DNA of 64,000 nucleotides from Gammaproteobacteria bacterium (GTDB lineage: Bacteria > Pseudomonadota > Gammaproteobacteria > Poriferisulfidales > Oxydemutatoraceae): assembly GCA_028817225.1 (NCBI GenBank), contig JAPPQC010000011.1:65098-129097 (forward strand). The letters are read 5' to 3'. The notes beneath the pieces were generated by a model. That model had not been told where the DNA came from. It saw only the letters and a list, made by a program, of their open reading frames with translations, and searched no databases. Position 1 is the stretch's first letter; each line of letters begins with the position of its first letter. A program made the translations under genes and the position numbers. Below, piece after piece: positions 11,562 to 31,476 of this stretch.

Positions 11562-12170
11562 TCAGGATTCCCGGTGCAGCAGGATCTTGTCCACAATGCC
11601 GTATTCACGGGCTTCCCGCGAATCCATGAAGCGGTCGCGCTCGGTGTCGCCGGCGATGCGCGCGGCGTCCTGCCCGGTGTGCTCGGCCAGGATGCGGTTG
11701 ACCTGGTCGCGCACCTTCAGGATTTCCTTCGCGTGAATATCCACATCGGTGGCCTGCCCCTGAAAGCCGCCGAGCGGCTGGTGAATCAGGATTTTGGAAT
11801 GGGGCAGCGCATGGCGCTTGCCGTGCGCGCCGCCGGCCAGCAGCAGCGCGCCCATGCTCGCCGCCTGGCCGATGCACAGCGTGCTGATGTCGGGTTTTGT
11901 AAACTGCATCGTGTCGTAGATTGCAAGCCCCGCCGACACCGAGCCGCCGGGGGAATTGATGTACAGCGAAATGTCCTTTTCCGGGTTCTCGGACTCGAGA
12001 AAAAGAATCTGGGCGATGACGAGGTTCGCCATGTGGTCCTCGATGGCGCCGACGATGAAGATGACGCGCTCCTTCAGCAGGCGCGAGTAGATGTCATATG
12101 AGCGTTCGCCGCGCGAGGTCTGCTCGACGACGATGGGAACCAGGTTCCCTGTGGGTTCACTGTGTTGCAT
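11562..12170 (-). CDS. clpP: ATP-dependent Clp protease proteolytic subunit ClpP
   Basis: Catalytic Ser motif GQAASMGA and His/Asp residues. I place the start at MQHSEPTG just after the tig stop; the longer ORF to 12245 overlaps tig. Confidence 0.9.
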
Positions 12171-13557
12171 GGCTGGTTTTCTCCGGGCCGGTGTGGACAA
12201 TTTCATCAAAAGAACAGGTTTTTTCACTGACCTGCGCCGCTTCAAGCACCCGCGCGATGACCTGGTCCTCGACGGCGAGGGCCTCGACCGCGCGGCGCAT
12301 CCGTTCGTTGCCGCGGTAGTGGTTCTTGACGCTTTCGGGGTCTTCGTACGACGCCGCCAGTTCGTCGAGCCGCGCCTCGAAGGACGCGCGGTCGGCGCGG
12401 ATGTCGTGCTGCTCGGCGTAGCGGTGCAGCAGCAGGCCGAGGCGCACGCGGCGCAGCGCCTCGTCGCGGAACAGTTCCGCCGGCAGGCGCGCGCCGTCTT
12501 CCTCCTTCATCCGGAAGCGGCTCGCCGCCTCCTTGCGCATCGTCGCGATTTCCTGCTCGACCATGACGGCGGGCACATCAAATTCGTTGTGTTCAAGCAG
12601 CGCGGCCATCACGCGCTGTTTCAGCAGTTGCGCGAGGCGCGCGCGCAATTCGTTTTCCATGCCTTCGCGCAGCATCGCGCGCAGCCCGTCGAGGCCGCCG
12701 GACTTGACGCCGCACGCGCTGAAAAACGCCTCGTCGAGCGCCGGCAGGACAGGTTCCTCGACCGCGTGCACGGCCACTTCGCGCTCCGCCTCGCCGCCGT
12801 CGCCGGTCGGCACGCGCACGCGGCGGCGGTCGCCCGCGCACACGCCCGCAAGGTCTTCGTTGAATGCGGACGGGACGCCGGACGCGCCCAGTTCCACCGT
12901 GACTTCTTCCGGGCGGTCGGACGGCGCGCCCTGCCCGGCGGCGTCCGCACCAGCGGCGGCGTTCTCACCGGCGCCGCCAACACCCTCTCCGCCGCCGCCG
13001 GCGTCTTCGCCGCCACCGGCGCTGTCGCCGGCGCCGCCTTCACCGGCGCGGCCAAAATTCAGCGTCAGGCGGTCGCCGGCGCGCGCCGGGCGTGAAACCG
13101 TCTTCCAGTCGGCGCGGTTTTTGCGGACGCGCTCGACCATCTGCTCCACATCCGCCGCCGTGACCCCGGCCACCGGCTTTTCAATGACGGCGCTCTCCAT
13201 CGGCGCCGCCTCAAACTCGGGGTACACCTCGATGCTGGCGGTGAACTCCAGGTCGCGGCCCGGCTCCGCCCGGACTTCCTCAAAACGCGGGTAGCCCGCC
13301 GGTTTCAGCAATTCCTTTTGCAGCACCTCGGTGTAATTCGACTGCATCAAGTCGCTCGCGACCTCGCTGAAGACCCTGCCCCCGAAACGCTGCTCGACAA
13401 TCCGCAGCGGCGCCTTGCCGGGGCGAAAGCCGTCGAGGCGAACGCTCTTGCACAACTTTCGCAGGCGCTTCTCGACCTGCCCGCGCACCTCTTCGGCGGC
13501 GACCCGGATGTGCAGTTTGCGCCCGAGAGGCCCCGCCGTTTCAATCGAGAAATCCAT
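12157..13557 (-). CDS. tig: trigger factor (carries an about 45-aa Gly/Ala/Glu/Asp low-complexity insertion)
   Basis: [24 protein letters not shown]... aligns to the Tig N-terminus. The ORF extends to a TTG at 13584, but ATG at 13557 matches homolog starts. The insertion [42 protein letters not shown] is in-frame. Confidence 0.9.
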
Positions 13558-13651
13558 CAACAAACCATGGTTCCGCCGCCACAAACCGTTGTTCTGCGCG
13601 GCAGAAACGGATTATAACCTTGAACGGCGCCTTCCATCAGCGGCGCGGCGG

Positions 13652-13778: not shown

Positions 13779-14093
13779 TCAGCGCGGCGCCTGCTGCAGG
13801 ATTCTGGCCTTGTACTGCCGCCAGTTGGCGCCCATCAGGCGCAGGCTTTCGCCGTCGGCGCCGTGGCGGCGGCGGTTCAGGCGGTAGGCGGCGTACGGAA
13901 TCTTGTAAAAAACAAAGGCCAGAAACATGATGGCGAGGCCGACGCCGGGCTTGTGTTCGTCCAGCAGCGGCACGCCGCCGCGCCACAACAGCACGCCGGC
14001 CAGGCACACCGCCGCCGCCAGCGCCACGGTCAGCAGCCGGTTGTAGCGGTCGTGCGAGCGCTTGATTTGCGCCAGATGTTCAATGGTTTCCAT
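13779..14093 (-). CDS. hypothetical small membrane protein (2 predicted TM helices)
   Basis: 104-aa ORF METIEHLAQIKRSHDRYNRLLTVALAAAVCLAGVLLW...GLAIMFLAFVFYKIPY with GC3-rich codons. No recognisable family. Confidence 0.4.
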   Translation of the reverse strand: METIEHLAQIKRSHDRYNRLLTVALAAAVCLAGVLLWRGGVPLLDEHKPGVGLAIMFLAFVFYKIPYAAYRLNRRRHGADGESLRLMGANWRQYKARILQQAPR

Positions 14094-14169
14094 CGCCGCC
14101 CGGCGCGGAATCGCGGTTGTTTTTCATCATGTCCGGTGCGAATGGTACAACACATGCTATGCTACGCGC

Positions 14170-14519
14170 GAGTCGGCCAGACGGTCGCTGTGGTTGCACA
14201 GAGGAAAGTCCGGGCTCCACAGGGCAGGGCGCCAGGTAACGCCTGGAGGGCGCGAGCCCATGGAAAGTGCCACAGAAAATACACCGCCGCGCCTGCGGGC
14301 GCGGTAAGGGTGAAAAGGTGCGGTAAGAGCGCACCGCGCCGGTGGCAACACCGGTGGCAGGGTAAACCCCGCCTGGAGCAAGGTTGAATAGGGAGGCAAG
14401 CGCGTTGCGCGGCACACGGCCCGTGTGCGCTTCCGGGTAAACCGCAAGAGGCGCATGGCGACATGCGTCCCAGATGAATGACCGTTCTCGACAGAACCCG
14501 GCTTACCGGCCGACTCACT
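14170..14519 (+). ncRNA. rnpB: RNase P RNA (bacterial type A, M1 RNA)
   Basis: Conserved blocks GAGGAAAGTCCGGGCTCCACAGGGCAGGGCGCCAGGTAACGCCTGG, AAAGTGCCACAGAAAATACACCGCC, GGTAAGGGTGAAAAGGTGCGGTAAGAGCGCACCGC, GGTAAACCCCGCCTGGAGCAAG and AGATGAATGACCGTTCTCGACAGAACCCGGCTTA. P1 helix GAGTCGGCC/GGCCGACTC. Confidence 0.85.
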
Positions 14520-14741
14520 TGAACCGGAGTCCGGTATAATCCGGCAACGACACGGGCGGCGCAAAGCCGCCTGGCTTGAAACCTTGGCCGACAACCTGCA
14601 CGACGACGGCCTGGCGGGCGGCGCCATCAGCCGCGCCATCCCGGCGCTGGTCGCAAAAAACTGGCTGGTGGTTGACGCAGGCGCCTGACCGCCGGTTTCA
14701 CCCCTTCCCGCGCCCGGCAACAAGGCAAAACGCCGCCGAAA

Positions 14742-15557
14742 TCAGCCCGCCGCCGGCTCTTGCAGCGCCAGCCGGAAAAGATGCGACAGCAGCGACCGGC
14801 CGCTCAGCAGTTGCTCGCGGGTTTTGTCCTTCAGCGCCTTGCCCATGCCGCCGCTGTTGTACAGCGTAAAGCCGAACGGATCGTCCTTCAGCCAGTCGTT
14901 GATGTCGTCCACTTCGCGGTAATAGACCTCGCGCTTCGACCAGTTCGGCCCGAATCGGCGGGCCGGAACCGCATAGAATGGATATTTTGGCAGAATGCGG
15001 CTGAACATCGCCGGGCCTTTCTCCGCGGCAAACGGCTCCGGAAACATACGCGACAAATAGCGCCTTCGCAGGTATCCCCACTTGCGTCTCGGCCCCCACC
15101 ACCCGGAACGGCCCAAGGCGTAATCCATCATGGACAAGGCTTCCCCGGGGATGCCGCAACCCCGAACAGAGGCCAGCATGCTGGTATGAATCACGCCCAA
15201 CCCGCCTTGTTCGTCTTTGTCCGCGCAGATGACAAAATCCGCCCGCTCCAGCGGAGCGGCCAGTTCGTCAATCTCTTTCAACAGAATGAAATCGCAGTCA
15301 AGCCACAGGCCGCCGTAGCGGTGCAGCAATGCATATCGTATGTAATCCGCCTTGATATCCAGAAGAATGGGCGCCTTCAACACCACCCACGGAAGATCGA
15401 GGAAATCCGTGACGGTGTTTTCATCCAGCAGTTTCAACTCCCACGAGCCCAAACGCCTGCGGATGGTCTCCAGGCACAAGTCCAGCCAGACGGGTTTGGA
15501 ACAACCGGGAGGGTTCTCCCAGTACATCCACACGGTCTTTTGATACGCCCGCTCCAT
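14742..15557 (-). CDS. glycosyltransferase with DXD sugar-binding region (GT32 / Caps_synth-like), tandem copy 1
   Basis: WMYWENPPG...DIKADYIRYALLHRYGGLWLDCDF motif typical of Gly_transf_sug / capsular-polysaccharide-synthesis family. Start taken at MERAYQ; the ORF runs on to 15578. Confidence 0.65.
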   Translation of the reverse strand: MERAYQKTVWMYWENPPGCSKPVWLDLCLETIRRRLGSWELKLLDENTVTDFLDLPWVVLKAPILLDIKADYIRYALLHRYGGLWLDCDFILLKEIDELAAPLERADFVICADKDEQGGLGVIHTSMLASVRGCGIPGEALSMMDYALGRSGWWGPRRKWGYLRRRYLSRMFPEPFAAEKGPAMFSRILPKYPFYAVPARRFGPNWSKREVYYREVDDINDWLKDDPFGFTLYNSGGMGKALKDKTREQLLSGRSLLSHLFRLALQEPAAG

Positions 15558-15653
15558 CGCCGCCGCCCGTGAATTCAAGGCCCGGCAAATCCGGTTGCAG
15601 TCAATGCCCGGAAACCTCTTCCGGCCAAAAAGCTTGTTGCGCCGGAAAACAAA

Positions 15654-16469
15654 TCAGCCCGCCGCCGGTTCTTCCAGCGCCAGCCGGAAAAGATGCGACA
15701 GCAGCGACCGGCCGCCCAGCAGTTGTTCGCGGGTTTTGTCCTTCAGCGCCTCGCCCATGCCGCCGCTGTTCCACAGGTTAAAGCCGAACGGATCGTCCTT
15801 CAGCCAGTCGTTGATGTTGTCCATTTCCCGGTAATAGACCTCGTGTTTCGACCAGTTCGGCCCGAATCTGCGGGCGGGATACGAATGGAATGGATATTTT
15901 GGCAGAATGCGTCTGAACATCGCCGGGCCTTTCTCCGCGGCGAACGGCGTCAAAACAGGCGGAAAACACCGCTTGATCAGGTATTTCAGCCTGCGCTTCG
16001 GTCTCAACCAGGAACGCCCCAGCGCGCCATCCATCATGGACAAGGCTTCTCCGAGGATGCCGCAACCGCGAACAGAGCCCAGCACGTTGGTATGAATCAG
16101 GCCCAACCCGCCTTGTTTGTCTTTGTTCGCGCAGATGACAAAATCCGCCCGCTCCAGCGGAGCGGCCAGTTCGTCAATCTCTTTCAACAGAATGAAATCG
16201 CAGTCAAGCCACAGGCCGCCGTAGCGGTGCAGCAATGCATATCGTATGTAATCCGCCTTGATATCCAGAAGAATGGGCGCCTTCAACACCACCCACGGAA
16301 GATCGAGGAAATCCGTGACGGTGTTTTCATCCAGCAGTTTCAACTCCCACGAGCCCAAACGCCTGCGGATGGTCTCCAGGCACAAGTCCAGCCAGACGGG
16401 TTTGGAACAACCGGGAGGGTTCTCCCAGTACATCCACACGGTCTTTTGCCAGGCCCGTTCCACCGCCAC
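15654..16469 (-). CDS. glycosyltransferase with DXD sugar-binding region (GT32 / Caps_synth-like), tandem copy 2
   Basis: 271 aa, near-identical to the adjacent copy over the N-terminal 160 aa or so and divergent at the C-terminus. GTG start. Confidence 0.65.
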   Translation of the reverse strand: MAVERAWQKTVWMYWENPPGCSKPVWLDLCLETIRRRLGSWELKLLDENTVTDFLDLPWVVLKAPILLDIKADYIRYALLHRYGGLWLDCDFILLKEIDELAAPLERADFVICANKDKQGGLGLIHTNVLGSVRGCGILGEALSMMDGALGRSWLRPKRRLKYLIKRCFPPVLTPFAAEKGPAMFRRILPKYPFHSYPARRFGPNWSKHEVYYREMDNINDWLKDDPFGFNLWNSGGMGEALKDKTREQLLGGRSLLSHLFRLALEEPAAG

Positions 16470-16485
16470 GCGCGGCCTCAGCGAC

Positions 16486-16578
16486 TGGCGGAGAGAGAGG
16501 GATTCGAACCCTCGATGAGGCTCATCACCCCATACTCCCTTAGCAGGGGAGCGCCTTCAACCACTCGGCCATCTCTCC
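16486..16578 (-). tRNA. tRNA-Ser (GCT), long variable arm
   Basis: Reverse complement GGAGAGATGGCCGAGTGGTTGAAGGCGCTCCCCTGCTAAGGGAGTATGGGGTGATGAGCCTCATCGAGGGTTCGAATCCCTCTCTCTCCGCCA. Confidence 0.85.
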
Positions 16579-16625
16579 GGCGGCAATCACAGCACGGCAT
16601 TTCCCGCGTCCCGGACCGGGGCGGG

Positions 16626-16862
16626 TCAGATTCTTTCGGCCTGCGGGGCGGTGTCTTCGGACGCGGCGCCGATGGAAGCCTGCGGGACGGGCGCGGCGCC
16701 TTCTTTCCGCATCTTCTCATACACTTCCTCGCGGTGCACCGGCGTCTCCTTCGGCGCGCTGACGCCGACGCGAATCTGGCCGCCGCGCACACCGAGAATG
16801 GTGATTGTCACATCGTCACCAATCATCAGGGCTTCTCCCACCCTTCTGGTTAAAATCAACAC
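16626..16862 (-). CDS. csrA: carbon storage regulator CsrA/RsmA (with about 20-aa C-terminal extension)
   Basis: GTG-TTG-ATT-TTA start gives [51 protein letters not shown]. The ORF track begins further upstream, but the CsrA N-terminus is unambiguous. Confidence 0.85.
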
Positions 16863-16939
16863 TTGAAAACCTCTCGTGGTTTGAGCGCCCATTATACCGC
16901 AAAACAAAAACGGCCCGCAGAGCAAGCGCTGACAGGCGC

Positions 16940-18169
16940 TCACAACACACCGCCGCTTTCCAGTTGAAAGGCGTCGTGCAGAACGCGCACCGCGGTTTCC
17001 ATGTTTTTCTCCTCGAGCACCACCGAAATCTTGATCTCGGAAGTCGAGATCATGCGGATGTCAATTCCCTCGCCGGCGAGCGCGCGAAACATCTTCGACG
17101 CCACGCCCGAGTGCGAACGCATGCCGACGCCCACCAGCGAAACCTTGACGATGGAGTCGTCGCCGAGGACGCGCCCGGCGCCGAGCGCGGCCACCGTCTT
17201 CTCCAGAATCGCGCTGGCGCGCTCGTAGTCGCGGCGGTGAACGGTGAAGGTGAAATCGGCGGTGCCGTCGCGCGAGCCGACATTCTGGACGATCATGTCC
17301 ACCTCGATGTTGTCGTCGGCGACCGGCCCCAGTATCCTGGCCGCGACGCCCGGCTTGTCGGGCACGCCGCGCACCGTCAACTGGGCCTCGTCGCGCTGGA
17401 ACGCAATGCCCGCAATCCCCGGATTTTCCAAGTTATTTTCCTCGTAGGTGATGCGGGTGCCCGGCCCCGGACGGAAGGTCGAGAGCACCCTCAGCGGCAC
17501 ATTATACTTGCCCGCCAGTTCAACCGAGCGTATCTGCAGTATCTTCGAGCCGAGGCTCGCCATCTCGAGCATTTCCTCGAAGGTGATCCGGTCGAGGCGC
17601 CGCGCCTTGTTCTCGACGCGCGGGTCGGTCGTATAGACGCCGTCCACATCGCTGTAGATGCGGCACTCGCGCGCGCCGAGCGCGGCGGCGACGGCGACGG
17701 CGCTGGTGTCGGAACCGCCGCGCCCGAGCGTCGTGATGTTGCCGCCGCCGTCCACGCCCTGAAAGCCGGCGACGATCACCGCCTTGCCGGCGTCGAGATG
17801 GCGGCGAATCGCGCCGTCCTCGATGCCGGTGATGCGCGCGCGGTTCCAGACGCCGTCGGTCAGGATGCGCGCCTGCGCGCCGGTCAGCGAAACCGCGGCG
17901 ACGCCCTCGCCCGCCAGCGCCATCGCCAGCAGCGCGGCGCTCGCCTGCTCGCCGGTGGCCAGCAGCATGTCGAGTTCGCGGCCCCGGCAGCGCGCATCCA
18001 CGCGCGCGGCCAGTTCCAGCAGGCGGTCGGTCTCGCCGCTCATCGCCGACAGCACGACGACGACATCGTCGCCGCGCCCGCGGTCCGCCGCGACAATCGA
18101 GGCGACATGGCGGATGCGCTCGACCGAACCGACCGACGAGCCGCCGAATTTTTCAACAATCAGGGCCAT
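16940..18169 (-). CDS. lysC: aspartate kinase
   Basis: [23 protein letters not shown]..., amino-acid kinase domain plus two C-terminal ACT-like regions. Confidence 0.9.
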
Positions 18170-18193: not shown

Positions 18194-18970
18194 TCAAAAG
18201 CGCGGCCAGACGGCGTCGCCCGGCAGGGCGTAACGCGCGTCGTATTCTATCGCAACCAGGTAGAGGCCGGCGCCTTCGGCGGTGACGCCGCCGCGCGTGC
18301 GGTCGCGCCATTCAAGCACCCGGCGCGCGTCATCGCGCGGGCGGTCGCCGCAGCCGATCTCCACCAGCACGCCGACGATGTTCCTGACCATGTGCTGCAA
18401 GAAGGCGTTGGCGCAGATATCCACATAGACAAAGCGCCCGTCGCGGCGGACAGCCACGCTTTCAACGCGGCGCATCGGCGTCCGCGAGCGGCAGCCGGCG
18501 CCGCGGTAGCCGCTGAAGTCGTGCTCGCCGACCAGCGCCTGCGCGGCGGCGTGCATCGCGCCGGCCTCGAGCGGGCGGCGCACCGGCGCGGTGAGGCGGC
18601 GCAGCAGCGCCGACGCCGCCGGCGCGTTCAGTATCACATAGCGGTAACGCCGCCGCAGCGCGCTGAAACGCGCGTGAAAATCACCGGCCACCGCCCGCAC
18701 CCAGCGCGCGCGCACATCGTCCGGCAGATGGCTGTTGGCGCCGCGCCGCCAGTCGTCTTCGGCGCGCGTGGCGGCGGACTCAAAATGCACAATCTGGCCG
18801 GTGGCGTGAACGCCGGCGTCGGTGCGCCCGGCGCAAACCACCTTGACCTCGTGGTCGGCGACCGCCGACAGCGCGGCCTCAACGCAGTCCTGAACGCTGC
18901 GCGCGTGCGACTGGCTCTGCCATCCGGAAAAATCCGCTCCGTCGTACTCCAGGCATACCGCAAACTTCAC
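18194..18970 (-). CDS. truA: tRNA pseudouridine(38-40) synthase TruA
   Basis: MKFAVCLEYDGADFSGWQSQ...VCAGRTDAGVHATGQIVHF... TruA motifs. Confidence 0.9.
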   Translation of the reverse strand: MKFAVCLEYDGADFSGWQSQSHARSVQDCVEAALSAVADHEVKVVCAGRTDAGVHATGQIVHFESAATRAEDDWRRGANSHLPDDVRARWVRAVAGDFHARFSALRRRYRYVILNAPAASALLRRLTAPVRRPLEAGAMHAAAQALVGEHDFSGYRGAGCRSRTPMRRVESVAVRRDGRFVYVDICANAFLQHMVRNIVGVLVEIGCGDRPRDDARRVLEWRDRTRGGVTAEGAGLYLVAIEYDARYALPGDAVWPRF

Positions 18971-20469
18971 CCGAGTTTTCCCTGCAACTGACGCGCCCGT
19001 TCAACCTGGCTCGCGTCGCCGCCGCGGATAACCTCATTGAGCAGCGCCGCGGCCTTGCCGGTCTCGCCGATTTCGATATAGACATAGGCCAGATGCAGTT
19101 TGCCGGCCACCTCGCCGCCGCCTTGCCCGGCGTCTTCGCCGCCGCCGCCTCTGATGCGTTCCAGTTCCCGCTGCCCGGGCAGAACACCACCGGACGGCGG
19201 CGGCGATGACGGCGACGATGGCGGCGCCGGCGGCGTCGGAGATGACGATGGCGGCGCCGAAGCCGCAGGCGTCGGAGATGGCGACGACGAAGGTGGCGGA
19301 GCCGAAGACGCCGGAGATGACGACGGCGGCGATGGCGATGCGGACGGCGGCGATGGCGATGCGGACGACGGCGACGACGACGCGGACGACGCAGGCGACG
19401 ACTCCAGCGGCTGCTTGATCATCGCCTCAATCGAGCGCGCCATTGACGACGCCGCGCGCAGACGCCGCCACTGCCGCCACATCAGCAGCAGCGCCAACAC
19501 GCCCCAGAAAGCGGCGAAGCCCGTCCACACCGGCTGCGTCAGCAGGCGGCGGTTGTCCCAGCCGTACTCCACCAGCACGGCGTGCAGAATGTTCCACCAG
19601 CGGCTGCGCGGCGCCGCCCCGGTGTCATCGCGCCCGGCGCGGTCGAGCGCGTGGCCCAATTCCACAATCCGGTTTTCAAGCGCCGCAATCTTCTCTTTCA
19701 GATAGACAAGGCGCTGCGGCACATTCTCGCCTTCATGCATCGCGCTGACGGTGCCCGCCGCCAGCAGATTGCCCAGCACCGCATACTGGCTGTCGCCGAA
19801 CAGCGCCTCGGACAGCGCGAAGGCGCTGCGCCCGTCGTCAAGGCGGCGCCCGAAAACAACCGCGGCGTCGCCGTCCAGCAGCGCGGCGACGCCGTCCACA
19901 AAGTCCGGCGCAAAATCGGTCCGCAGAAAGCGCATCACCAGGTGTTTTTCACCCGGGTTGTACGAACGCCCGTCCGCCAGCCGCTTGAGTTCGGAAAACA
20001 CCTCGGTGCGCGGCCTGCCGGAATCCCCGGCCAGCAACGCCAGCAGGCGCGCCAGCACTTCGGGCGGCGTCATCACCGCCGGCGGCGGCGGCGGCGGCGG
20101 CGCGCCCAGCACAATACGCACCGGCTCCAGCAGCGTGCCGTTCGGATGCACAATGCCAAGCAGCAGGTTGAACGCGGCCTCGTTGACCGGCCCGATGCTG
20201 CTGACGGCGACATGCGGCGGCGTCGCCGCCGGCACCAGTTCCATCACGATGCGGTCGTGCAGCGGCGCATAGTCCAGCCCGGTCTCGGCGTAGGCCGCGC
20301 GGTCGGTGCGTATCAGGCGCAGCACATCGTGCCCGGCGGCGCTGATTTCCAGCAGCGGAATGCGGGCGTCGAGCGTCTCGCCGGGAACGCTCTCGACAAC
20401 CGGCTCGCCCAGTTCCAGCGCGTGCAGCGCCGGGCACAGCAGCAGCAGCGGCAGCGCGAGGCGTTTCAC
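18967..20469 (-). CDS. FimV/HubP-like polar landmark protein (signal peptide, TM, Pro/Ser-rich linker, C-terminal FimV-type TPR-like motif)
   Basis: Position between truA and asd as in Pseudomonas fimV. GTG start VKRLALPLLLLCPALHA overlaps the asd stop (GTGA). C-terminal LAYVYIEIGETGKAAALLNEVI. The ORF extension to 20751 overlaps asd. Confidence 0.6.
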   Translation of the reverse strand: MKRLALPLLLLCPALHALELGEPVVESVPGETLDARIPLLEISAAGHDVLRLIRTDRAAYAETGLDYAPLHDRIVMELVPAATPPHVAVSSIGPVNEAAFNLLLGIVHPNGTLLEPVRIVLGAPPPPPPPAVMTPPEVLARLLALLAGDSGRPRTEVFSELKRLADGRSYNPGEKHLVMRFLRTDFAPDFVDGVAALLDGDAAVVFGRRLDDGRSAFALSEALFGDSQYAVLGNLLAAGTVSAMHEGENVPQRLVYLKEKIAALENRIVELGHALDRAGRDDTGAAPRSRWWNILHAVLVEYGWDNRRLLTQPVWTGFAAFWGVLALLLMWRQWRRLRAASSMARSIEAMIKQPLESSPASSASSSPSSASPSPPSASPSPPSSSPASSAPPPSSSPSPTPAASAPPSSSPTPPAPPSSPSSPPPSGGVLPGQRELERIRGGGGEDAGQGGGEVAGKLHLAYVYIEIGETGKAAALLNEVIRGGDASQVERARQLQGKLG

Positions 20470-21509
20470 GCGCAATGCCCGGCGGCGAGGTGTTCGCGCA
20501 GCAGGTGCTCCGCGATCTGCACGCTGTTGGTGGCCGCGCCCTTGCGTAAATTGTCGCTGACGACCCACAAGTCCAGCCCGCGCGGATGCGAGATGTCCTT
20601 GCGAAGACGCCCGACGAAGACATCGTCGCTGCCGTCGGCGTCGGTCGCCGCCGTCGGGTAGCCGCCGTCGCGGCGCTCGTCCATCAGCGTGACGCCGGCG
20701 GCGGACGCCAGCGCCGCGCGCGCCTCGCCGAGGTCCACATCGCGTTCGCACTCGATGTGCACCGCCTCCGAATGGCCGTGCACGACCGGCACGCGCACCG
20801 TCGTCGGGTTGACGCGGATGGCGTCGTCGCCGAATATCTTGCGGGTCTCCCAGACCATCTTCATTTCCTCTCTGGTGTAGCCGTTGTCGAGAAACACATC
20901 AATCTGCGGCAGCGCGTTGAACGCGATGCGCTTCGGGTACATGTCACCCGTCGCCGGCTTCCCGTCGAGCAGCGCGCGCGTCTGCGCCAGCATTTCCTCG
21001 ACCGCGCGCCGCCCGGCGCCGGACACCGCCTGGTAGGTCGCGACATTGATGCGCGTGATGCGAAAGCGGTCGTGCAGCGGTTTCAGCGCAACCACCATCT
21101 GAATCGTCGAGCAGTTCGGGTTGGCGACGATGCCGCGGTTGGCGTAGTGCGCGAGCGCTTCGGGGTTGACCTCGGGCACGACCAGCGGAATGTCGTCGTC
21201 GCGGCGAAAGTGCGAGGTGTTGTCCACGACGACGCAGCCGGCGGCGGCGGCGCGCGGCGCGTGGCGCTCCGACACCGCCGCGCCCGCCGAGAACAGCGCG
21301 ATGTCAACGCCGGCGAAATCAAACGCCTCAAGGTCGGCGACGGCGACTTTGCGGCCCCTGAAATCCAGCGCCGCGCCCGCCGAGCGGGCGCTCGCCAGCA
21401 GGTGCAACCGGGCGACCGGAAAATCGCGCTCCTCCAGCACCCGGCGCATCGTCGCGCCGACGGCGCCGGTCGCGCCGACAACCGCCACATTGACTTTTTT
21501 CACCGCCAT
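20466..21509 (-). CDS. asd: aspartate-semialdehyde dehydrogenase
   Basis: MAVKKVNVAVVGATGAVG...NPNCSTIQMVVALKPL..., a strong ASD match. Confidence 0.9.
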   Translation of the reverse strand: MAVKKVNVAVVGATGAVGATMRRVLEERDFPVARLHLLASARSAGAALDFRGRKVAVADLEAFDFAGVDIALFSAGAAVSERHAPRAAAAGCVVVDNTSHFRRDDDIPLVVPEVNPEALAHYANRGIVANPNCSTIQMVVALKPLHDRFRITRINVATYQAVSGAGRRAVEEMLAQTRALLDGKPATGDMYPKRIAFNALPQIDVFLDNGYTREEMKMVWETRKIFGDDAIRVNPTTVRVPVVHGHSEAVHIECERDVDLGEARAALASAAGVTLMDERRDGGYPTAATDADGSDDVFVGRLRKDISHPRGLDLWVVSDNLRKGAATNSVQIAEHLLREHLAAGHCA

Positions 21510-22614: not shown

Positions 22615-23640
22615 TCAGGCGGCGCGGCCCTTGCCGTTGCCGCCGCCGCTACCGCCGCTGCGGCCAAACGGCCACAGCGCCTTCCAGTTAATCTTGAAGT
22701 CGCCCCGCCACAGGGTCAGCGCCAGCCATTTGATGAACTCTGCGTTGCCGAGGCGCAGCAGCACTTCCCCGCACAAATACCCCAGCGGGAATTTGCCGCC
22801 GTTCAGAAAGTACCACTTGAAACCGCCCCAGATTATGGGGCCGGCGTTTCTCCCCCAAGAAACATCGCTGCGGTGAATCAAATGAACCAGTTCCGGCCGC
22901 TCGATGCAAACCTCGCTCATCAGGCGCTCCTCTATCAGAACAAGACGTCCCTCCCGGACCCGGCGCTCAAGACATTCATAATAGGCATCGCCCCAGCGGA
23001 TGACAGCCTCGCTTGAGCCTCCCCAAAACGCGGCGTTGACCGCCAACTCCGACGGCTTGTTGCCCGGCGACGGGTCGGGAGTCCAGGGTGGCGGGCCCAG
23101 ATAATTGACGACGGTAATCGCCACCTTGTGCCGGGGCAGCGCCCGGCACACCCGCAAATTCGGCCATTCAATGCGCTCCGACAAGCGAAACATCTGATTG
23201 TCGGAGCGGACGGTTGCCCTGAAAGCGCCGGCATCGCACCAGAATATCATCTCCGAGCCAAACGGATTCATCCCGGCGGCGCGCCGGGCAAAGTTGCACT
23301 TCTCATTCCAGATCATGGAGACATCGGGGTGCATGGCGCGACCCGGATGCGCATCCGGAGGCTGGGCAAGATACTGATCCTGAAAAACATCCCGGTATTT
23401 GTGGACAAGAAATTCCTCCGGACTGACGGCAAGATAAACTGCGGGCTTGTCCCCTCTCATCCGCCTGATTTCATCCAGCGACTGCTCTTCACAAAAAATG
23501 ACCAGCGGCCAGCGAATATGCGACACAAAAGTCCTCATCCACTCTTCGTACGGCCGGACGAAAGACTCGTTTCTTCTCCGCTGTCTGACCTTGAACCAGG
23601 CTGTCACCAGCGTTACCGGGTGCTGTTCGTTTGTCTTCAT
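22615..23640 (-). CDS. HtrL/YibB-like putative glycosyltransferase-family protein, long form, paralog 1 of 9
   Basis: [18 protein letters not shown]...[20 protein letters not shown]...[30 protein letters not shown]...[21 protein letters not shown]. Motif order resembles E. coli waa-cluster HtrL (TIVTAYFDIG...VAWVDFG) from memory. Confidence 0.6.
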
Positions 23641-23664
23641 ATCATTTGTCCGCCGCAAGGCCGG

Positions 23665-24750
23665 TCAGGCAGCGCGGCCCCTGCCATTTCCGTCGCCACC
23701 GCCGGCGCTCCCGCCACCGCCAAAGGGCCACAGCGCCTTCCAGTTAATCTTGAAGGTGCCCCGCCACAGGACCAGCGCCAGCCACTTGACGAATTCCGCG
23801 TTGCCGAGGCGCAGCAACACTTCCCGGCACAAATATCCCAGCGGGAATTTCCCGCCGTTCAGATAGTAGTACCTGAACCAGTCCCAGCACACATCGCCGG
23901 CGTTCCCGCCCCAGGAGACGGCGCTGCGTGGAATCAAATGCACCAGTTCCGGCCGGGTGATGCAAACCTCGCTCATGATGGGCTCCTCCATCAGAATGTG
24001 GCGCCCCTCCCGGACCCGGTGTTCAAGACATTCATAATAGGCGTCGCCCCAGCGGATGACAGCCTCGCTTGCGCCTCCCCAGAACCCGGCGCCGACCATC
24101 AGCACAGACGGCTTGCCGCCCGGCGCCGGACCATTCCCCGGCAACGGGTCGTGAGTCCGGGAGTGGTCGGGGCTCCAGGGCGGGTCGGGAGTCCAGGGTG
24201 GCGAACCCGGATAATTGACGATGGACACCGCCACCTTGTCCTGCGGCAGCGCCCGGCACACCCGCAAATTCGGCCATTCAATGCGCTGCGACAAACGGAA
24301 CAGCTGATTTTCAGTTCGCACGGTCGCCCTGAAAGCGCCGATATCGCACCAGAATATCATCTCCGACCCGAACGGGTTCATCCTGGCGGCGCGCCGGGCA
24401 AAGTTATACTTCTCATTCCAGATCATGGAAAGGTCCGGGTACAGGGCGCGAACCGTGTCCATCGCCGGAGGATGGGCAAGAATCTGGTTCTGAAAAACAC
24501 CCCGGTATTTGCAGACAAGGAATTCTTCCAGACTGGTGACAAGATAAACCGCAGGCCTGTCCCCTCTCATCCGCCTGATTTCATCCAGCGACTGTTCTTC
24601 ACAGAAAACAACCAGCGGCCAGCGAATATACGACAGAAAATTCCGCATCCACTCCTCGTACGGCCGGGCGCAGTCTTCGGCTCTTCTCCGCTGCCTGACT
24701 TTGAACCAGGCCGTCACCAGCGTTATCGGGTGCTGTTCGCTTGTCTCCAT
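23665..24750 (-). CDS. HtrL/YibB-like protein, long form, paralog 2
   Basis: [18 protein letters not shown]... 361 aa. Close paralog of 22615..23640. Confidence 0.6.
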   Translation of the reverse strand: METSEQHPITLVTAWFKVRQRRRAEDCARPYEEWMRNFLSYIRWPLVVFCEEQSLDEIRRMRGDRPAVYLVTSLEEFLVCKYRGVFQNQILAHPPAMDTVRALYPDLSMIWNEKYNFARRAARMNPFGSEMIFWCDIGAFRATVRTENQLFRLSQRIEWPNLRVCRALPQDKVAVSIVNYPGSPPWTPDPPWSPDHSRTHDPLPGNGPAPGGKPSVLMVGAGFWGGASEAVIRWGDAYYECLEHRVREGRHILMEEPIMSEVCITRPELVHLIPRSAVSWGGNAGDVCWDWFRYYYLNGGKFPLGYLCREVLLRLGNAEFVKWLALVLWRGTFKINWKALWPFGGGGSAGGGDGNGRGRAA

Positions 24751-24774
24751 GTCGTTTGTTCGCCGCAGGGCCGG

Positions 24775-25800
24775 TCAGGCGGCGCGGCCTCTGCCGTTGT
24801 TGCCGCCGCTCCCGCCACCGGCAAAGGGCCACAGCGCCTTCCAGTTGAATCTGAAGGCGCCCCGCCACAGAATCAGCACCAGCCATTTGATGAATCTCCA
24901 ATCGCCGATGCGCGGCAGCACCTCCCTGCACAAATACCCCAGCGGGAATTTCCCGCCGTTCAGATAGTACCACCTGTAATGGGTCCAGGACATTTCACCG
25001 GCGGCCCCTCCCCAGGAAACGGCGCTGCGGGGAATCAAATGCACCAGTTCCGGCCGGGCGATGCAAACCTCGCCCATGATGGGCTCTTCCACCAGAACGA
25101 AGCGCCCCTCCCGAACCCGGCGCTCAAGACATTCATAATAGGCGTCGCCCCAGCGGATGACAGCCTCGCTTGAGCCGCCCCAGAACCCGGCGGCGACCGC
25201 CAATGCCGGTTGGCCGCCATCCGGCGCAGGACCATTCCCCGGCGGCGGGCCGGAAAGCCCGGGTGGCGAATCCGGATAATTGACGACGGGAATCGCCACC
25301 CTGTCCTGCGGCAGCGCCCGGCACACCTGCAAATTCGGCCATTCAACGCGCTGCGACAAACGGAACACCTGTTCGTTGTAACTGGCGGTTGCCTTGAAAA
25401 TACCGACATCACACCAGAATATCATTTCCGACCCGAACGGGTTCATCCCGGCGGCGCGGCGGGCAAAGTTGCACTTCTCATTCCAGACCATGGCGAGATT
25501 GGGGTCCAGGGAACCGGACCTGTCCGGACGATCCGGGCACTGATCCTGAAAAACACGCCGGTATTTGTGGACAAGAAATTCCTCCGGACTGACGGCAAGA
25601 TAAACCGCGGGCCTGTCGCCTCTCATCCGCCTCATTTCATCCAGCGATTGCTCTTCACCGAAAACAACCAGCGGCCAGCGGATATGCGACAGCAAATTCC
25701 GCATCCATTCCTCGTACGGGCGAAAGGAGGATGCGCCTCTCCGCCTGATTTTGTACCAGGCCGTCACCAGCGTTATCGGATATTGTTCGCGTGTCTCCAT
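24775..25800 (-). CDS. HtrL/YibB-like protein, long form, paralog 3
   Basis: METREQYPITLVTAWYKI... Start lies 9 nt after the leuD stop. Confidence 0.6.
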   Translation of the reverse strand: METREQYPITLVTAWYKIRRRGASSFRPYEEWMRNLLSHIRWPLVVFGEEQSLDEMRRMRGDRPAVYLAVSPEEFLVHKYRRVFQDQCPDRPDRSGSLDPNLAMVWNEKCNFARRAAGMNPFGSEMIFWCDVGIFKATASYNEQVFRLSQRVEWPNLQVCRALPQDRVAIPVVNYPDSPPGLSGPPPGNGPAPDGGQPALAVAAGFWGGSSEAVIRWGDAYYECLERRVREGRFVLVEEPIMGEVCIARPELVHLIPRSAVSWGGAAGEMSWTHYRWYYLNGGKFPLGYLCREVLPRIGDWRFIKWLVLILWRGAFRFNWKALWPFAGGGSGGNNGRGRAA

Positions 25801-25809
25801 TGCAAACAC

Positions 25810-27970: not shown

Positions 27971-28816
27971 TCATTGCGCCGGCGCGGAAAATATCCTGTT
28001 GCAGAAGTATTTCCACGGAAACCGTTGGCCGCTCAGAAAATACCACCGGTGGCCGCTGATTTCCTTTCCGGCCAGTCCGGCCGCGAAACTGACAAGCCGT
28101 ATCCACGGAACACGGCGGTGGGACAGCAGATAGGCGGCATCCGGCCGTCCTTTCCAGGCCGAGTGCATGACAATCTCATCCGACCGCTCGAAAGTGCCCT
28201 CTTCAGAGCACCGCTCAAGATATTGGTAATAGATGTCGCACCACCGACGCAGCGGTTCGGTCGCGCCGCCGAAAAAATTGCCCATGATGGCGGGGCAGGT
28301 CGAGGCATAAATCAGAATCAAGCCCACCTTGTCCCGCGACAGTGCCCGGCACACCCGCAGATTGGGCCATTCGACGCCTTCGGAAAGGCGCAGTCCGAAC
28401 CTCTCGCCCCTGAACAGGCCGACATCGCACCAGAAAAACATCTCCGAACCAAAAGGATTTTCCGACATCGCCTGCCGCAGGAAATGATGTTTCTCATGCC
28501 AAATCAAACTGCATGTGACAAAGGCTTCGGCGCGTTCCGCCGGAAACGGCAGGCGCTTCAGATTGTCCAGATACCGGTAGGCATAAAACGCCTCCGGGCG
28601 GGTGACATGGTACACCGCCGGCTTGCCTCCCCGCGCTTCCTTCAGCATGTCCAGGGACTGCTCGTCGCAGAAGATGACCAACGGCCAGCGGATAAACGGC
28701 AGCAGGTTTCTGATCCAGTCCGGATACGGGTTGCCCCACTCCGGATGGTCAATTTTCACTCCCACATTGAAATAGGCCGTCACCAGCGTCAGCGGGGATT
28801 GCCCGTGCGTTTCCAT
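27971..28816 (-). CDS. HtrL/YibB-like protein, short form, paralog 4
   Basis: METHGQSPLTLVTAYFNVG...[26 protein letters not shown]...WHEKHHFLRQAMSENPFGSEMFFWCDVGLF. An alternative ATG 24 nt upstream overlaps the previous paralog's stop (ATGA). Confidence 0.6.
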   Translation of the reverse strand: METHGQSPLTLVTAYFNVGVKIDHPEWGNPYPDWIRNLLPFIRWPLVIFCDEQSLDMLKEARGGKPAVYHVTRPEAFYAYRYLDNLKRLPFPAERAEAFVTCSLIWHEKHHFLRQAMSENPFGSEMFFWCDVGLFRGERFGLRLSEGVEWPNLRVCRALSRDKVGLILIYASTCPAIMGNFFGGATEPLRRWCDIYYQYLERCSEEGTFERSDEIVMHSAWKGRPDAAYLLSHRRVPWIRLVSFAAGLAGKEISGHRWYFLSGQRFPWKYFCNRIFSAPAQ

Positions 28817-28836
28817 TTCGTTGTCGGCAACGCGCG

Positions 28837-29700
28837 TCATTTTCCCGAACCGGAGAATATTCCCTTGCAGATGTGTTTCCACGGAAACCGCCTGCCGCTC
28901 AGGAGATACCACCGGTGGCCATACCCCTTTTTCCCGGCCAGCCTCGTCAGAAAAGCGAGGGGCCGCAGCCACGGAACAATGCCGGGGGGCAGCGGATATG
29001 CCATATCCGGGTGTTTGATGTAAAGAGATTCCATGATGCCCTCTTCCGAATAAATCATCGTCCCCTTCCGCGCGCGCCGTTCAAGATGACGGTAATACGC
29101 ATCGCACCATTCGCGCGCCGGCTTCACCGCGCCCCCGAAAAACTGGCCGGTGAAATTGGGGCGGTCAAAATTCCCGTACGGCAGCAGAACCGCCCTGTCC
29201 TGCGGCAACTCCCTGCATATCCGGAGATTGGGCCATTCGGCATCCCCGCAAAAGCGCAATTCCATCCTGACGGCGGAACGCCAGGGCGCGTCCCGCCTGA
29301 ATCTGAACATGCCGATATCGCACCAGAAAAGCATTTCCGAATTAAACGGGTTTTCCGACAGCGCGCGCCGCAGAAAATTGTGTTTCTCGTGCCAAACCAG
29401 GGAAACTTCGGCGGAAAGCCCTGCGTAGGGTTTCTTCAAATCCTTCAGCAGGTTCCAGTACTTGTAAACAACAAAATCTTCCGGGCGGGTGACATGCCAA
29501 ACCGCCGGCTTGTCGCCCCTCGCCTCCTTCAGCATGTCCACGGACTGCTCGTCGCAGAAAATCACCAGCGGCCACTTGATATACGGCAGGAAGTTTCTGC
29601 TCCAGTCCGGATACGGGTTTCCGGTGTATTTCACCTGTTTGCGGCCCAGATTGAAACAGGCCGTCACCAGCGTGATCGGATGCTGTCCGGTTGTTTCCAT
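28837..29700 (-). CDS. HtrL/YibB-like protein, short form, paralog 5
   Basis: METTGQHPITLVTACFNLG... Same family as the neighbours. Confidence 0.6.
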   Translation of the reverse strand: METTGQHPITLVTACFNLGRKQVKYTGNPYPDWSRNFLPYIKWPLVIFCDEQSVDMLKEARGDKPAVWHVTRPEDFVVYKYWNLLKDLKKPYAGLSAEVSLVWHEKHNFLRRALSENPFNSEMLFWCDIGMFRFRRDAPWRSAVRMELRFCGDAEWPNLRICRELPQDRAVLLPYGNFDRPNFTGQFFGGAVKPAREWCDAYYRHLERRARKGTMIYSEEGIMESLYIKHPDMAYPLPPGIVPWLRPLAFLTRLAGKKGYGHRWYLLSGRRFPWKHICKGIFSGSGK

Positions 29701-29720
29701 CCCGTTGCCGGCAGCGCGCG

Positions 29721-30587
29721 TCATCGCGCCGGCGCGGAAAAGAGCCTGCTGCAAAAGTATTTCAACGGAAACCGCCTGCCGTTCAGGAGATAGTATTTGT
29801 AACCCATCACTGCATTTCTTCGCCGAAGGCAAGCAATATACGGAACACTGTCAAGCGGCATCGTATATGCGAGTTCCGGCTTTCTCCTCCAGCAGGACAT
29901 CATGACGAACTCTTCTCTATAGACAAAATTCCCATTCTGCTTGCATTTTTCAAGACACCGGTAATAAGCGTCGCACCACCGGCGCGAAGGCTCAATCGCG
30001 CCCCCGAAAAACTGGGCATTGATACGACTAAGGTCCGCGTTTGCCAAAATCACTTTATCTTGCGGCAACGCACGGCACACCCCAAGATTGGGCCATTCGA
30101 TGTCTTCAAACAGGCGAAATGTCATCCGCGGCCCCTCAATCATGGGCGCATCAGGATTGTACCTGAACTGGCCGATATCGCACCAGAAAAGCATCTCCGA
30201 ACCGAAAGGGTTCTCCAACAGCGCCTGCCGCAGAAAATGATGTTTCTCATGCCAGATTAAACTGCGTGCAACAAAAACCTCGCGTGTAATGGGGGCTTCG
30301 CCATAGAGCGTGCAACATGGCAGGCGCTTCAGGTCATCCAGATACCTGTATGTATAAAACTCCTCCGGACGGGTGACGCGCCAAACCGCCGGCTTGTCCC
30401 CTCTCGCCTCTTTGAGCATGTCCAGCGATTGCTCGTCGCAGAACACCACCAGCGGCCACCGGACATGCGGCAGGAAGTTCCTGATCCAGCCCGGATACGG
30501 ATTTTCCAACTCCGGATGTTCGGGTTTCCCTCCCAATTCAAAATAAGCCGTCACCAGCGTTATCGGGTGCCGCTCCGCTGTCTCCAT
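29721..30587 (-). CDS. HtrL/YibB-like protein, short form, paralog 6
   Basis: METAERHPITLVTAYFELGGKPEHPELENPYPGWIRNFLP... Confidence 0.6.
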   Translation of the reverse strand: METAERHPITLVTAYFELGGKPEHPELENPYPGWIRNFLPHVRWPLVVFCDEQSLDMLKEARGDKPAVWRVTRPEEFYTYRYLDDLKRLPCCTLYGEAPITREVFVARSLIWHEKHHFLRQALLENPFGSEMLFWCDIGQFRYNPDAPMIEGPRMTFRLFEDIEWPNLGVCRALPQDKVILANADLSRINAQFFGGAIEPSRRWCDAYYRCLEKCKQNGNFVYREEFVMMSCWRRKPELAYTMPLDSVPYIACLRRRNAVMGYKYYLLNGRRFPLKYFCSRLFSAPAR

Positions 30588-30607
30588 CCCGCTGTCGGCG
30601 GCGCGCA

Positions 30608-31456
30608 TCATCGCACCGGCCCGGAAATGAGCCTTCTGCAAAAGTACCGCCACGGCAACCGCCTGCCGTTCAGGAGATACCACTCGAAATCCAGTGCAGG
30701 CCTTTGCTTTTTAAGGAAAACAGTATATGGAGCGGAATAAGACGAAATCACATGCGCGAGTTCAGGTTGCCTCCTCCAGCAGGACATCATGACGTACTCT
30801 TCTCTCTCGGTAAGACTTCCATTCTGCTTTCGTCGTTCAAGACGTTGGTAATAAGCGTCGCACCACCGGCGCGAAGGCTCAATCGCGCCTCCGAAAAAGC
30901 AGCCAGCCATGGCATCGTAAGGCGCCCCGGCTAAAACCACTTTATCTTTCGGCAATGCCCGACACACTTCGAGATTGGGCCATTCGATATCTTCAAACAG
31001 GCGAAATGCCCTCCGCCGAGACGACCACCAGGGGGCGTCCGGCTCGTATCTGAGCTTAGCGATATCGTACCAGAAAAACATCTCCGAACCAAAAGGGTTC
31101 TCCGACAGCGTCTGCCGCAGAAAATGATGCTTTTCATGCCAGACCAAACTGCGAACAACGAAGGCTTCGGCACGTTCCGCAGGAAATGACAGGCGCTTCA
31201 GATCTTCCAGATACTTGTACACATAAAAATCTTCCGGGCGAGTGACATGCCAAACCGCCGGCTTGTCCCCTCTCGCCTCTTTGAGCATGTCCAGCGATTG
31301 CTCGTCGCAGAACACCACCAGCGGCCACCGGACATGCGGCAGGAAGTTCCTGATCCAGCCCGGATACGGATTTTCCAACTCCGGATGTTCGGGTTTCCCT
31401 CCCAATTCAAAATAAGCCGTCACCAGCGTTATCGGGTGCCGCTCCGCTGTCTCCAT
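30608..31456 (-). CDS. HtrL/YibB-like protein, short form, paralog 7
   Basis: METAERHPITLVTAYFELGG... Unusual FWYDIAKL where the others have FWCDIG. Confidence 0.55.
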   Translation of the reverse strand: METAERHPITLVTAYFELGGKPEHPELENPYPGWIRNFLPHVRWPLVVFCDEQSLDMLKEARGDKPAVWHVTRPEDFYVYKYLEDLKRLSFPAERAEAFVVRSLVWHEKHHFLRQTLSENPFGSEMFFWYDIAKLRYEPDAPWWSSRRRAFRLFEDIEWPNLEVCRALPKDKVVLAGAPYDAMAGCFFGGAIEPSRRWCDAYYQRLERRKQNGSLTEREEYVMMSCWRRQPELAHVISSYSAPYTVFLKKQRPALDFEWYLLNGRRLPWRYFCRRLISGPVR

Positions 31457-31476
31457 CCCGCTGTCGGCGGCGCGCA

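Follow-up and report, generated by a model that had tools for sequence, protein, structure and literature searches.

Tandem copies, with an apparently gene-converted 5' half, of a predicted GT32-like glycosyltransferase gene long resident downstream of tRNA-Ser(GCT)

The window analysed here is a 64,000-nucleotide (nt) stretch of a gammaproteobacterial metagenome assembly (contig JAPPQC010000011.1). Between tRNA-Ser(GCT) and the RNase P RNA gene rnpB it carries two adjacent minus-strand glycosyltransferase (GT) genes, referred to as copy A and copy B. The account that we consider probable is that a GT32-like gene long resident at this site was duplicated in tandem and had its 5' half homogenised by gene conversion, and that its products have a role in adding side branches to a surface glycan. 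Both copies match GT families, the model of copy A has a GT-A-type fold, a GT gene occupies the same position in relatives, the duplicated genes have one tract in common that is perfectly identical, and mosaics of the two types are found among homologous alleles. An att-like repeat of the tRNA 3' end is absent from the window, as is an integrase gene from the gap that the pair occupies.

Identity, divergence and recombination between the two copies

The features of the pair are as follows.

14742..15557, minus strand: GT copy A (271 amino acids, aa), open reading frame (ORF); Pfam PF05704 2.4e-13, PF04488 7.2e-8
15654..16463, minus strand: GT copy B (269 aa), ORF; Pfam PF05704 2.5e-13, PF04488 6.7e-8
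15558..15653, minus strand: inter-copy spacer of 96 nt; a 12-bp hairpin lies in it beyond the stop codon of copy B, with no U-run
15222..15542, minus strand: identical 321-nt tract, copy A arm; codons 6-112, the nucleotide-sugar/DxD half
16128..16448, minus strand: identical 321-nt tract, copy B arm; spacing between the arms 906
15012..15110, minus strand: hypervariable segment of copy A, aa ~150-182
about 15930-16016, minus strand: equivalent of the hypervariable segment in copy B

Over their full length the two copies are 85% identical in protein sequence (BLASTP E 2e-173). When the 65 differences between them were permuted, none of 20,000 permutations attained an identical run as long as the 321 nt observed. 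By segment, the nucleotide difference is 0/312 in the tract, then 13.5%, then 33% in the central and most diverged part (alignment codon columns 160-185, ~aa 150-182 of copy A), and 7.5% over the final ~90 codons. Outside the tract the copies differ by 65 substitutions and by indels, and their true upstream regions and the 96-nt spacer align poorly.

These figures modify the description given in an earlier note on this DNA, which had reported near-identity over the first ~160 aa, divergence at the C-terminus and identity extending into the upstream leader. Perfect identity spans codons 6-112 and not the first ~160 aa. The divergence lies not at the C-terminus but in the central block. The string that had been taken for a shared leader, CAGCCCGCCGCCGG on the plus strand, is in reverse complement the final codons and the stop of each gene; it belongs to the gene 3' end and not to a leader. 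The remainder of that description agrees with what we found: two minus-strand ORFs with their boundaries between tRNA-Ser(GCT) and rnpB, csrA and lysC beyond tRNA-Ser, and the motif GGLWLDCDF in both copies.

Both ORFs are intact, and were listed mechanically as 14742-15578 and 15654-16469. The start of copy A is probably the ATG at 15557 and that of copy B probably the GTG at 16463, which aligns with the ATG of the orthologues in two related loci, L001 and L003. Copy A is NCBI MDD9868537.1 and an exact match to cluster member P0025. Copy B is NCBI MDD9868538.1 and identical to P0002; an exact look-up of the P0002 sequence returned no record.

The history of the pair was examined against relatives at the same junction, represented by loci L001/L002, L003-L006 and L007/L008, and by Candidatus (Ca.) Oxydemutator sp. 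(L011), the closest relative among the species representatives of the genome collection. The single GT gene of L001 is A-type over its 3' two-thirds (2.9-4.7% from A against 7.2-33% from B), while in its first codons and upstream flank it corresponds to copy B, the one next to the tRNA. Copy B is not further than A from the outgroup L003 and keeps the outgroup-like central motif RLKYLIKR, in place of which A and L001 have a derived motif in common. The dS values are 0.18 for A-B, 0.11 for A-L001 and 0.55 for A-L003. As read from these comparisons, a duplication, or the gain of a B-type allele by recombination, falls after the L003 split and at or before the window/L001 split, and the identical 5' tract appears as a later gene-conversion event. 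The single-copy form is what an unequal crossover in the identical tract would leave. A recent duplication of A that gave rise to a fast-diverging B was also considered, and was rejected on the distance of B from L003 and on its outgroup-like motif.

Alleles from related assemblies combine A-type and B-type diagnostic residues block by block. P0034 has b/a/b blocks, P0024 and P0032 have a/b/a blocks, and P0026 and P0030 are A-type with b patches; these block-wise alleles indicate that recombination moves the central segment between alleles. The tandem pair itself recurs, with different alleles, in a second NCBI metagenome-assembled genome (MAG; MDD9886643/4). Two further loci have it: L092, a separate 2-kb contig, and L091, in which 7 kb agree with the window at 100% identity, so that both could have been assembled from one set of reads. 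In a different lineage, sampled in the same series and with a locus GC of about 57%, three intact GT copies of this family stand in tandem (L093 7001-10245, L094 894-4128) with 88-93% nt identity. The three-copy array adjoins an APS (adenosine 5'-phosphosulfate) kinase gene, a hint of sulfated glycans. Among 80 loci fetched from the metagenome-contig collection, none had more than one GT copy, and a scan of that collection with the family alignment gave distant relatives only (≤34% identity), mostly JGI- or TARA-labelled, and no close haplotypes.

Head-to-tail copies, an identical tract within genes that are otherwise 7-33% diverged, and mosaic alleles are the marks of concerted evolution in tandem paralogs, and compared with other converted tandem paralogs there is nothing unusual about the pair. 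The tract coincides with the conserved catalytic half, so that selection and conversion act in the same direction.

All of these sequences are metagenome assemblies, and the tandem or the single-copy form might be an artefact arising from strain mixtures and a repeat of more than 300 nt. The 7-kb identity of L091 to the window and a contig that stops at the tract end (JAPPPM010000108.1) can be cited in its favour. However, a unique spacer of 96 nt connects the copies, which are set apart outside the tract by the 65 substitutions and the indels, and the pair was assembled in at least two MAGs with different alleles as well as on the separate contig L092. The single-copy form, for its part, occurs in three divergent lineages, always directly before different downstream genes. 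We regard an assembly artefact as very improbable.

For A against B, dN/dS is 0.71 over the codons outside the tract and 0.91 in the central segment, compared with 0.19-0.34 for orthologue pairs. The hypervariable segment includes residues 152-177, which were modelled at a predicted local distance difference test (pLDDT) score below 50. Both ratios and the poorly modelled segment could be accounted for by a duplication without function, in which one redundant copy drifts to loss and the variable segment is an unconstrained loop; close relatives apparently manage with one copy. Against such drift, all invariant family residues are identical in the two intact ORFs, the pair persists with diverged sequences in the second MAG, and the three tandem copies of the other lineage are likewise intact. 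Furthermore, B keeps an outgroup-like central motif and not random changes, and the block-wise mosaics indicate that both types circulate. Drift without function is therefore, in our judgement, unlikely. Taken together, the mosaic and selection pattern fits a diversification of acceptor specificity, and is also compatible with relaxed constraint on a redundant copy.

A resident gene at a variable junction

The pair is flanked by the following features.

16486..16578, minus strand: tRNA-Ser(GCT) (ARAGORN; Rfam tRNA 62.2 bits), directly upstream of copy B
16626..16862, minus strand: csrA (ORF translation; PF02599 on orthologues), upstream of tRNA-Ser on the same strand
16940-18169, minus strand: lysC, beyond csrA
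14563..14685, plus strand: gene scar, in which 41 codons are left from the end of an mbnB/hvfC-type gene (tblastn 80% over 41 aa, E 1.4e-13)
14169..14521, plus strand: rnpB (RNase P RNA class A; Rfam 324.7 bits)
13779-14093, minus strand: conserved 104-aa ORF between tRNA-Leu and rnpB

The minus-strand order is thus lysC, csrA, tRNA-Ser(GCT), copy B and copy A, after which come the plus-strand scar and rnpB and, past rnpB, the 104-aa ORF, tRNA-Leu, tig, clpP and clpX. The 1.96-kb gap from tRNA-Ser to rnpB (14522-16485) contains the two GT genes and the 41-codon scar only.

The earlier note had proposed that the pair was inserted at a tRNA integration site, and the comparison with relatives speaks against this. 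A single GT orthologue is present at an identical junction in all three sets of relatives, with 96% identity in L001/L002, 78% in L003-L006 and ~55% in L007/L008. For comparison, the flanks of L001/L002 are 97.7-99.2% identical to the window at the nucleotide level, and LysC identity is 95% in L003-L006 and 89% in L007/L008. The order truA-lysC-csrA-tRNA-Ser-GT-...-rnpB-orf104-tRNA-Leu-tig-clpP is kept throughout these loci. From the tRNA 3' end to the GT start there are 22 nt in the window (to copy B), in L001 and in L003, and ~27 nt in L007. The GT is present at the junction in every relative with a LysC identity of at least 89%, and no empty site was seen. Among the relatives GT divergence scales at ~4x that of LysC, which fits the vertical descent of a fast-evolving gene.

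A search of the 64 kb with the last 25 and 18 nt of the tRNA-Ser 3' end, allowing up to 3 mismatches, gave no second site, so the tRNA end is repeated nowhere else in the window; a general repeat search returned chance-size matches of 13-20 nt and nothing longer that was att-like. No integrase or mobility gene lies between tRNA-Ser and rnpB, where the two GT genes and the scar leave no room for an integrase. For the gene itself, the relatives at the tRNA-Ser/rnpB junction point essentially to ancestry and not to insertion. As far as the sequences compared can tell, the GT is a long-standing resident downstream of csrA and tRNA-Ser(GCT) in this clade, and its recent acquisition as part of an islet is refuted by the conserved synteny.

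At greater depth the content of the junction changes. In Ca. Oxydemutator sp. (L011 9946-11451; LysC identity 82%) the flanks are kept and the GT is absent between tRNA-Ser and rnpB, where a 245-aa hypothetical ORF and an AbrB/MazE-MazF-like toxin-antitoxin pair are found instead. The genus Ca. Oxydemutator has been described as a sponge symbiont (PMC11685487), and the clade of the window organism is probably sponge-associated. Base composition at the junction is atypical as well. The GT genes have a GC content of 0.58-0.59 and a third-position GC content (GC3) of 0.74-0.75, against 0.62-0.71 and 0.83-0.90 respectively in housekeeping genes. The orthologous GT of L007 (8001-8786) has 43.8% GC against 58-67% (about 62%) for its neighbours, which suggests a xenologous replacement or strong compositional drift at the same slot.

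A bufferin operon (BufA1 and an MbnB/HvfC fusion), encoding a ribosomally synthesised and post-translationally modified peptide (RiPP), lies beside the GT. It is intact in L001 (6873-8983), L003 (3726-5900) and L007 (10123-12160), and is missing in L008 and in the window, which aligns from L001 position 6965 straight to 9015. On this alignment the operon was apparently deleted from the window and left the 41-codon scar. The bufferin RiPP operon is a recurrent presence/absence polymorphism beside the GT. Together, the different content in Ca. Oxydemutator, the presence or absence of the bufferin operon and the GC-poor GT mark the junction as a variable spot, in which the GT is an accessory-type gene of long residence.

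These same features would suit a horizontally acquired islet that integrated at the 3' end of tRNA-Ser(GCT) with the GT genes as cargo: the GT genes are GC-poor, with the 43.8% allele in the L007 slot, the gap in Ca. Oxydemutator is occupied by a toxin-antitoxin pair together with an unrelated ORF, and the bufferin operon comes and goes next door in close assemblies. However, the tRNA 3' end has no repeat within 64 kb, the gap has no mobility gene, and the GT start stays 22 nt from the tRNA in relatives with as little as 78% identity and ~27 nt from it at ~55%, with divergence at ~4x that of LysC. We consider the islet to be quite improbable. The pair is like tRNA-associated islands in its position directly 3' of a tRNA, its atypical composition and the variable content of the junction at depth, and unlike them in having no integrase or att repeat, in measuring only 1.96 kb and in that the gene is kept in place.

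The gene rnpB is placed identically in L001, L003, L007, L008 and L011 and forms the conserved far boundary of the variable junction. The 104-aa ORF behind it is 83-100% identical in closer relatives, has a weak 33% match in Ca. Oxydemutator, and gave no Pfam or NCBIfam match.

Family, expression and probable function

Both copies match PF05704 (Caps_synth) with 50.5 bits against a cut-off of 24.5, and PF04488 (Gly_transf_sug) with 33.5 and 33.6 bits against a cut-off of 23. The matches are confined to residues ~10-120, that to PF05704 spanning profile positions 44-156 of 278, and the C-terminal half has no Pfam match. The DxD motif is D87-C-D89 within GGLWLDCDF, and both Asp residues are invariant in 14 homologues. 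Across these homologues, which reach down to 24% identity, M-Y-W-E-N, L-D-L-C, D-Y-I-R, GG.W.D.D and one C-terminal Arg are invariant. A profile of the homologue alignment matches the structure of yeast Och1 (9n3s) at the DxD region (E 8.9e-4). The AlphaFold2 (AF2) model of copy A has a pLDDT of 83.3 and a predicted TM-score (pTM) of 0.82, its low-confidence residues being the 152-177 stretch mentioned above. In a Foldseek search of the PDB with this model Och1 was again the best match (E 2.3e-6, TM ~0.4), and the further matches (YeGT, SetA, PaToxG, LARGE1, GlyE, glycogenin and LgtC) are all GT-A. No transmembrane-like stretch was found in the GT (maximum KD19 1.28).

These data argue that both copies encode soluble, DxD-type, GT32-like glycosyltransferases with a predicted GT-A fold. 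The GT32 label is based on the Pfam-to-CAZy correspondence stated in PMC10462825 and on the Och1 matches, and a retaining mechanism is presumed by analogy. The GT32/capsule-type assignment made in the earlier note is thereby borne out by Pfam hidden Markov models above their gathering cut-offs, by the invariant DxD and by the top structural match. Compared with the α-1,6-mannosyltransferase Och1 (CAZy GT32/PF04488), the copies have in common the GT-A fold and the aligned region DY(I/L)RY..L...GG.W.D.D. They differ in being bacterial, soluble and free of a membrane anchor, and copy A is shorter (271 aa against 431), with identity of 18-19% over ~190 aligned columns. A secreted toxin-type glycosyltransferase was considered and rejected as our leading reading: the SetA, YeGT and PaToxG matches are generic GT-A likeness (TM ~0.4), and homologues are found in LPS (lipopolysaccharide) and capsule clusters.

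An exhaustive profile search returned 248 cluster representatives below 1e-30, mostly as full-length matches, and the family is accordingly a large and ordinary one. Several members lie among genes for surface polysaccharides. P0004 is divergent from a GT2-DUF2064-LpxL-GT9 heptosyltransferase operon, P0019 has a PglD-like acetyltransferase, an ABC-2 exporter and a GT4 as neighbours, and P0014 has a Glyphos_transf (glycerophosphotransferase), a GT2 and an ABC exporter. Among the relatives of P0004, five clusters (P0009-P0013, on contigs up to 2.6 Mb) have truncated products of 166-170 aa, the frame being lost in a poly-Gly run (GGGGGGG) of the P0004-type gene; a slippage-prone tract or pseudogenes are possible.

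Two characterised systems give a guide to function. GtrOC27 and GtrOC33 of the Acinetobacter baumannii lipooligosaccharide (LOS) outer-core (OC) locus carry PF04488 and PF05704, and the locus also has HtrL (PMC10327509). In pneumococci the retaining GT32 enzyme WciE (PF05704) is believed to attach an α-Galp branch that is readily lost or gained (PMC10462825). Given these family members and the homologue neighbourhoods, the most likely activity of each enzyme is transfer of a hexose from a nucleotide sugar onto the LPS/LOS outer core or a capsule, where it would form a side branch. The likeness to GtrOC27/GtrOC33 lies in the PF04488 and PF05704 pair and in the HtrL of that locus, which has a counterpart in an HtrL-like array of the window. 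However, it is a likeness of domain content, and those genes belong to a dedicated OC locus whereas the window genes are scattered in housekeeping blocks. WciE is comparable in that PF05704 is also the best Pfam family of the GT copies and in the dispensable side-branch role proposed here for the pair. In contrast to WciE, the window host is Gram-negative and no cps locus surrounds the pair.

Transcription of the pair is probably by read-through from csrA/tRNA-Ser followed by tRNA processing, so that the genes would be co-transcribed. A scan of 14100-17100, covering the sigma-70 consensus only, detected no promoter-like site, and a terminator scan of the same interval found no convincing intrinsic terminator, either in the stretch that separates the tRNA from copy B or in the inter-copy spacer. 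RNA folding z-scores were -1.2 for the spacer, +1.0 downstream of copy A and +0.4 for the copy B leader, none of them significant. Read-through is the simplest model given the conserved 22-nt gap after the tRNA and a scan that yielded neither a promoter nor a convincing terminator.

In the scheme that we favour, a head-to-tail GT duplication would have occurred within the species-level lineage of the window, and the 5' half with the donor-binding DxD region would have been homogenised by gene conversion. The central ~30 residues, and less so the C-terminal third, would be under relaxed or diversifying selection and would be exchanged between alleles by recombination. Two copies might then provide two acceptor or linkage specificities, and with them strain-level variation of the surface glycan.

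Several observations weigh against this scheme. The low GC3 of the pair and the 43.8% GC allele of L007 leave room for a past horizontal replacement, and a dN/dS of 0.71 is also expected of a copy drifting towards loss. The single-copy contigs L001/L002 are short-read metagenome assemblies and could skip one unit of a repeat longer than 300 nt. In addition, locus L179 (NCBI JAPPPM010000108.1, 6108-6460) stops exactly where the tract ends, at residue 118 of the GT next to the tRNA, and this stop resembles an assembly break at a repeat boundary. Given the possible skipping and the L179 end, loss by unequal crossover in the relatives is unproven. NCBIfam has no model for copy A or B, and the promoter scan was confined to one consensus. 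No conventional LPS or capsule operon stands beside the pair in the window, which makes the acceptor a guess. What the substrate is, what the variable segment does and which agent drives selection we infer, and the function of the subfamily is assigned by analogy.

Other amplified LPS-type genes in the window and significance

Beyond the pair, the genome does have other amplified genes of LPS type inside housekeeping loci, as the earlier note had suggested with its HtrL-like array. At least 8 HtrL_YibB-like paralogs surround leuBCD, on the minus strand at 22615-25809 and 27971-32400. Three of them lie between leuB and leuD, with 67-74% identity to each other, and five upstream of leuC, with 53-72%; identity between the two groups is 37-40%. 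GC3, measured on the leuB-leuD trio, is 0.72-0.75, as low as in the GT pair. L007 has a single HtrL-like copy between leuD and leuB. Pfam matches to HtrL are weak, with E from 1e-5 to 9e-4; most of them fall short of the gathering score, and four ORFs of the eight gave no match.

Two further proteins of the window contain low-complexity sequence. Trigger factor, the tig product (12157-13584), has a Gly/Ala/Asp-rich insert that coincides with a local GC peak of 0.74, and in a FimV-like protein (18967-20751) Ser and Pro form a long run. For housekeeping proteins, low-complexity inserts like these are unusual.

A more ambitious interpretation, which we put forward only tentatively and think rather unlikely, is that sponge symbionts have in the tRNA-Ser-linked GT locus a module dedicated to diversifying their surface glycans. 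The catalytic half would then be kept uniform by conversion while a ~30-residue acceptor-specificity cassette would be shuffled among copies and strains. Copy number would vary, with one copy in some lineages, two in the window and three in the second lineage, and expression would be tied to the csrA/tRNA-Ser transcript. If this were true, co-resident strains would show different LPS/LOS side branches to phage or host recognition. Otherwise the GT pair is ordinary accessory-gene biology.

For annotation, the locus corrects a tempting error, because a tRNA-adjacent position and low GC do not make an island. The gene itself is an old resident, and on the comparisons made here the strain-specific part is the doubling and the inter-copy shuffling only. 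The enzyme is of a known kind, a GT32-like surface-glycan transferase, and its points of note are modest, namely the cassette-like variable segment and the parallel HtrL-like amplification. The pair does offer a clean, well-bounded case of concerted evolution in a probable surface-glycan enzyme of an uncultured, probably sponge-associated clade. If acceptor specificity is set by the variable segment, the GT locus, to which the HtrL-like arrays of the window may be a parallel, would serve as a simple marker for surface variation among symbiont strains and as a determinant of it that can be put to the test.

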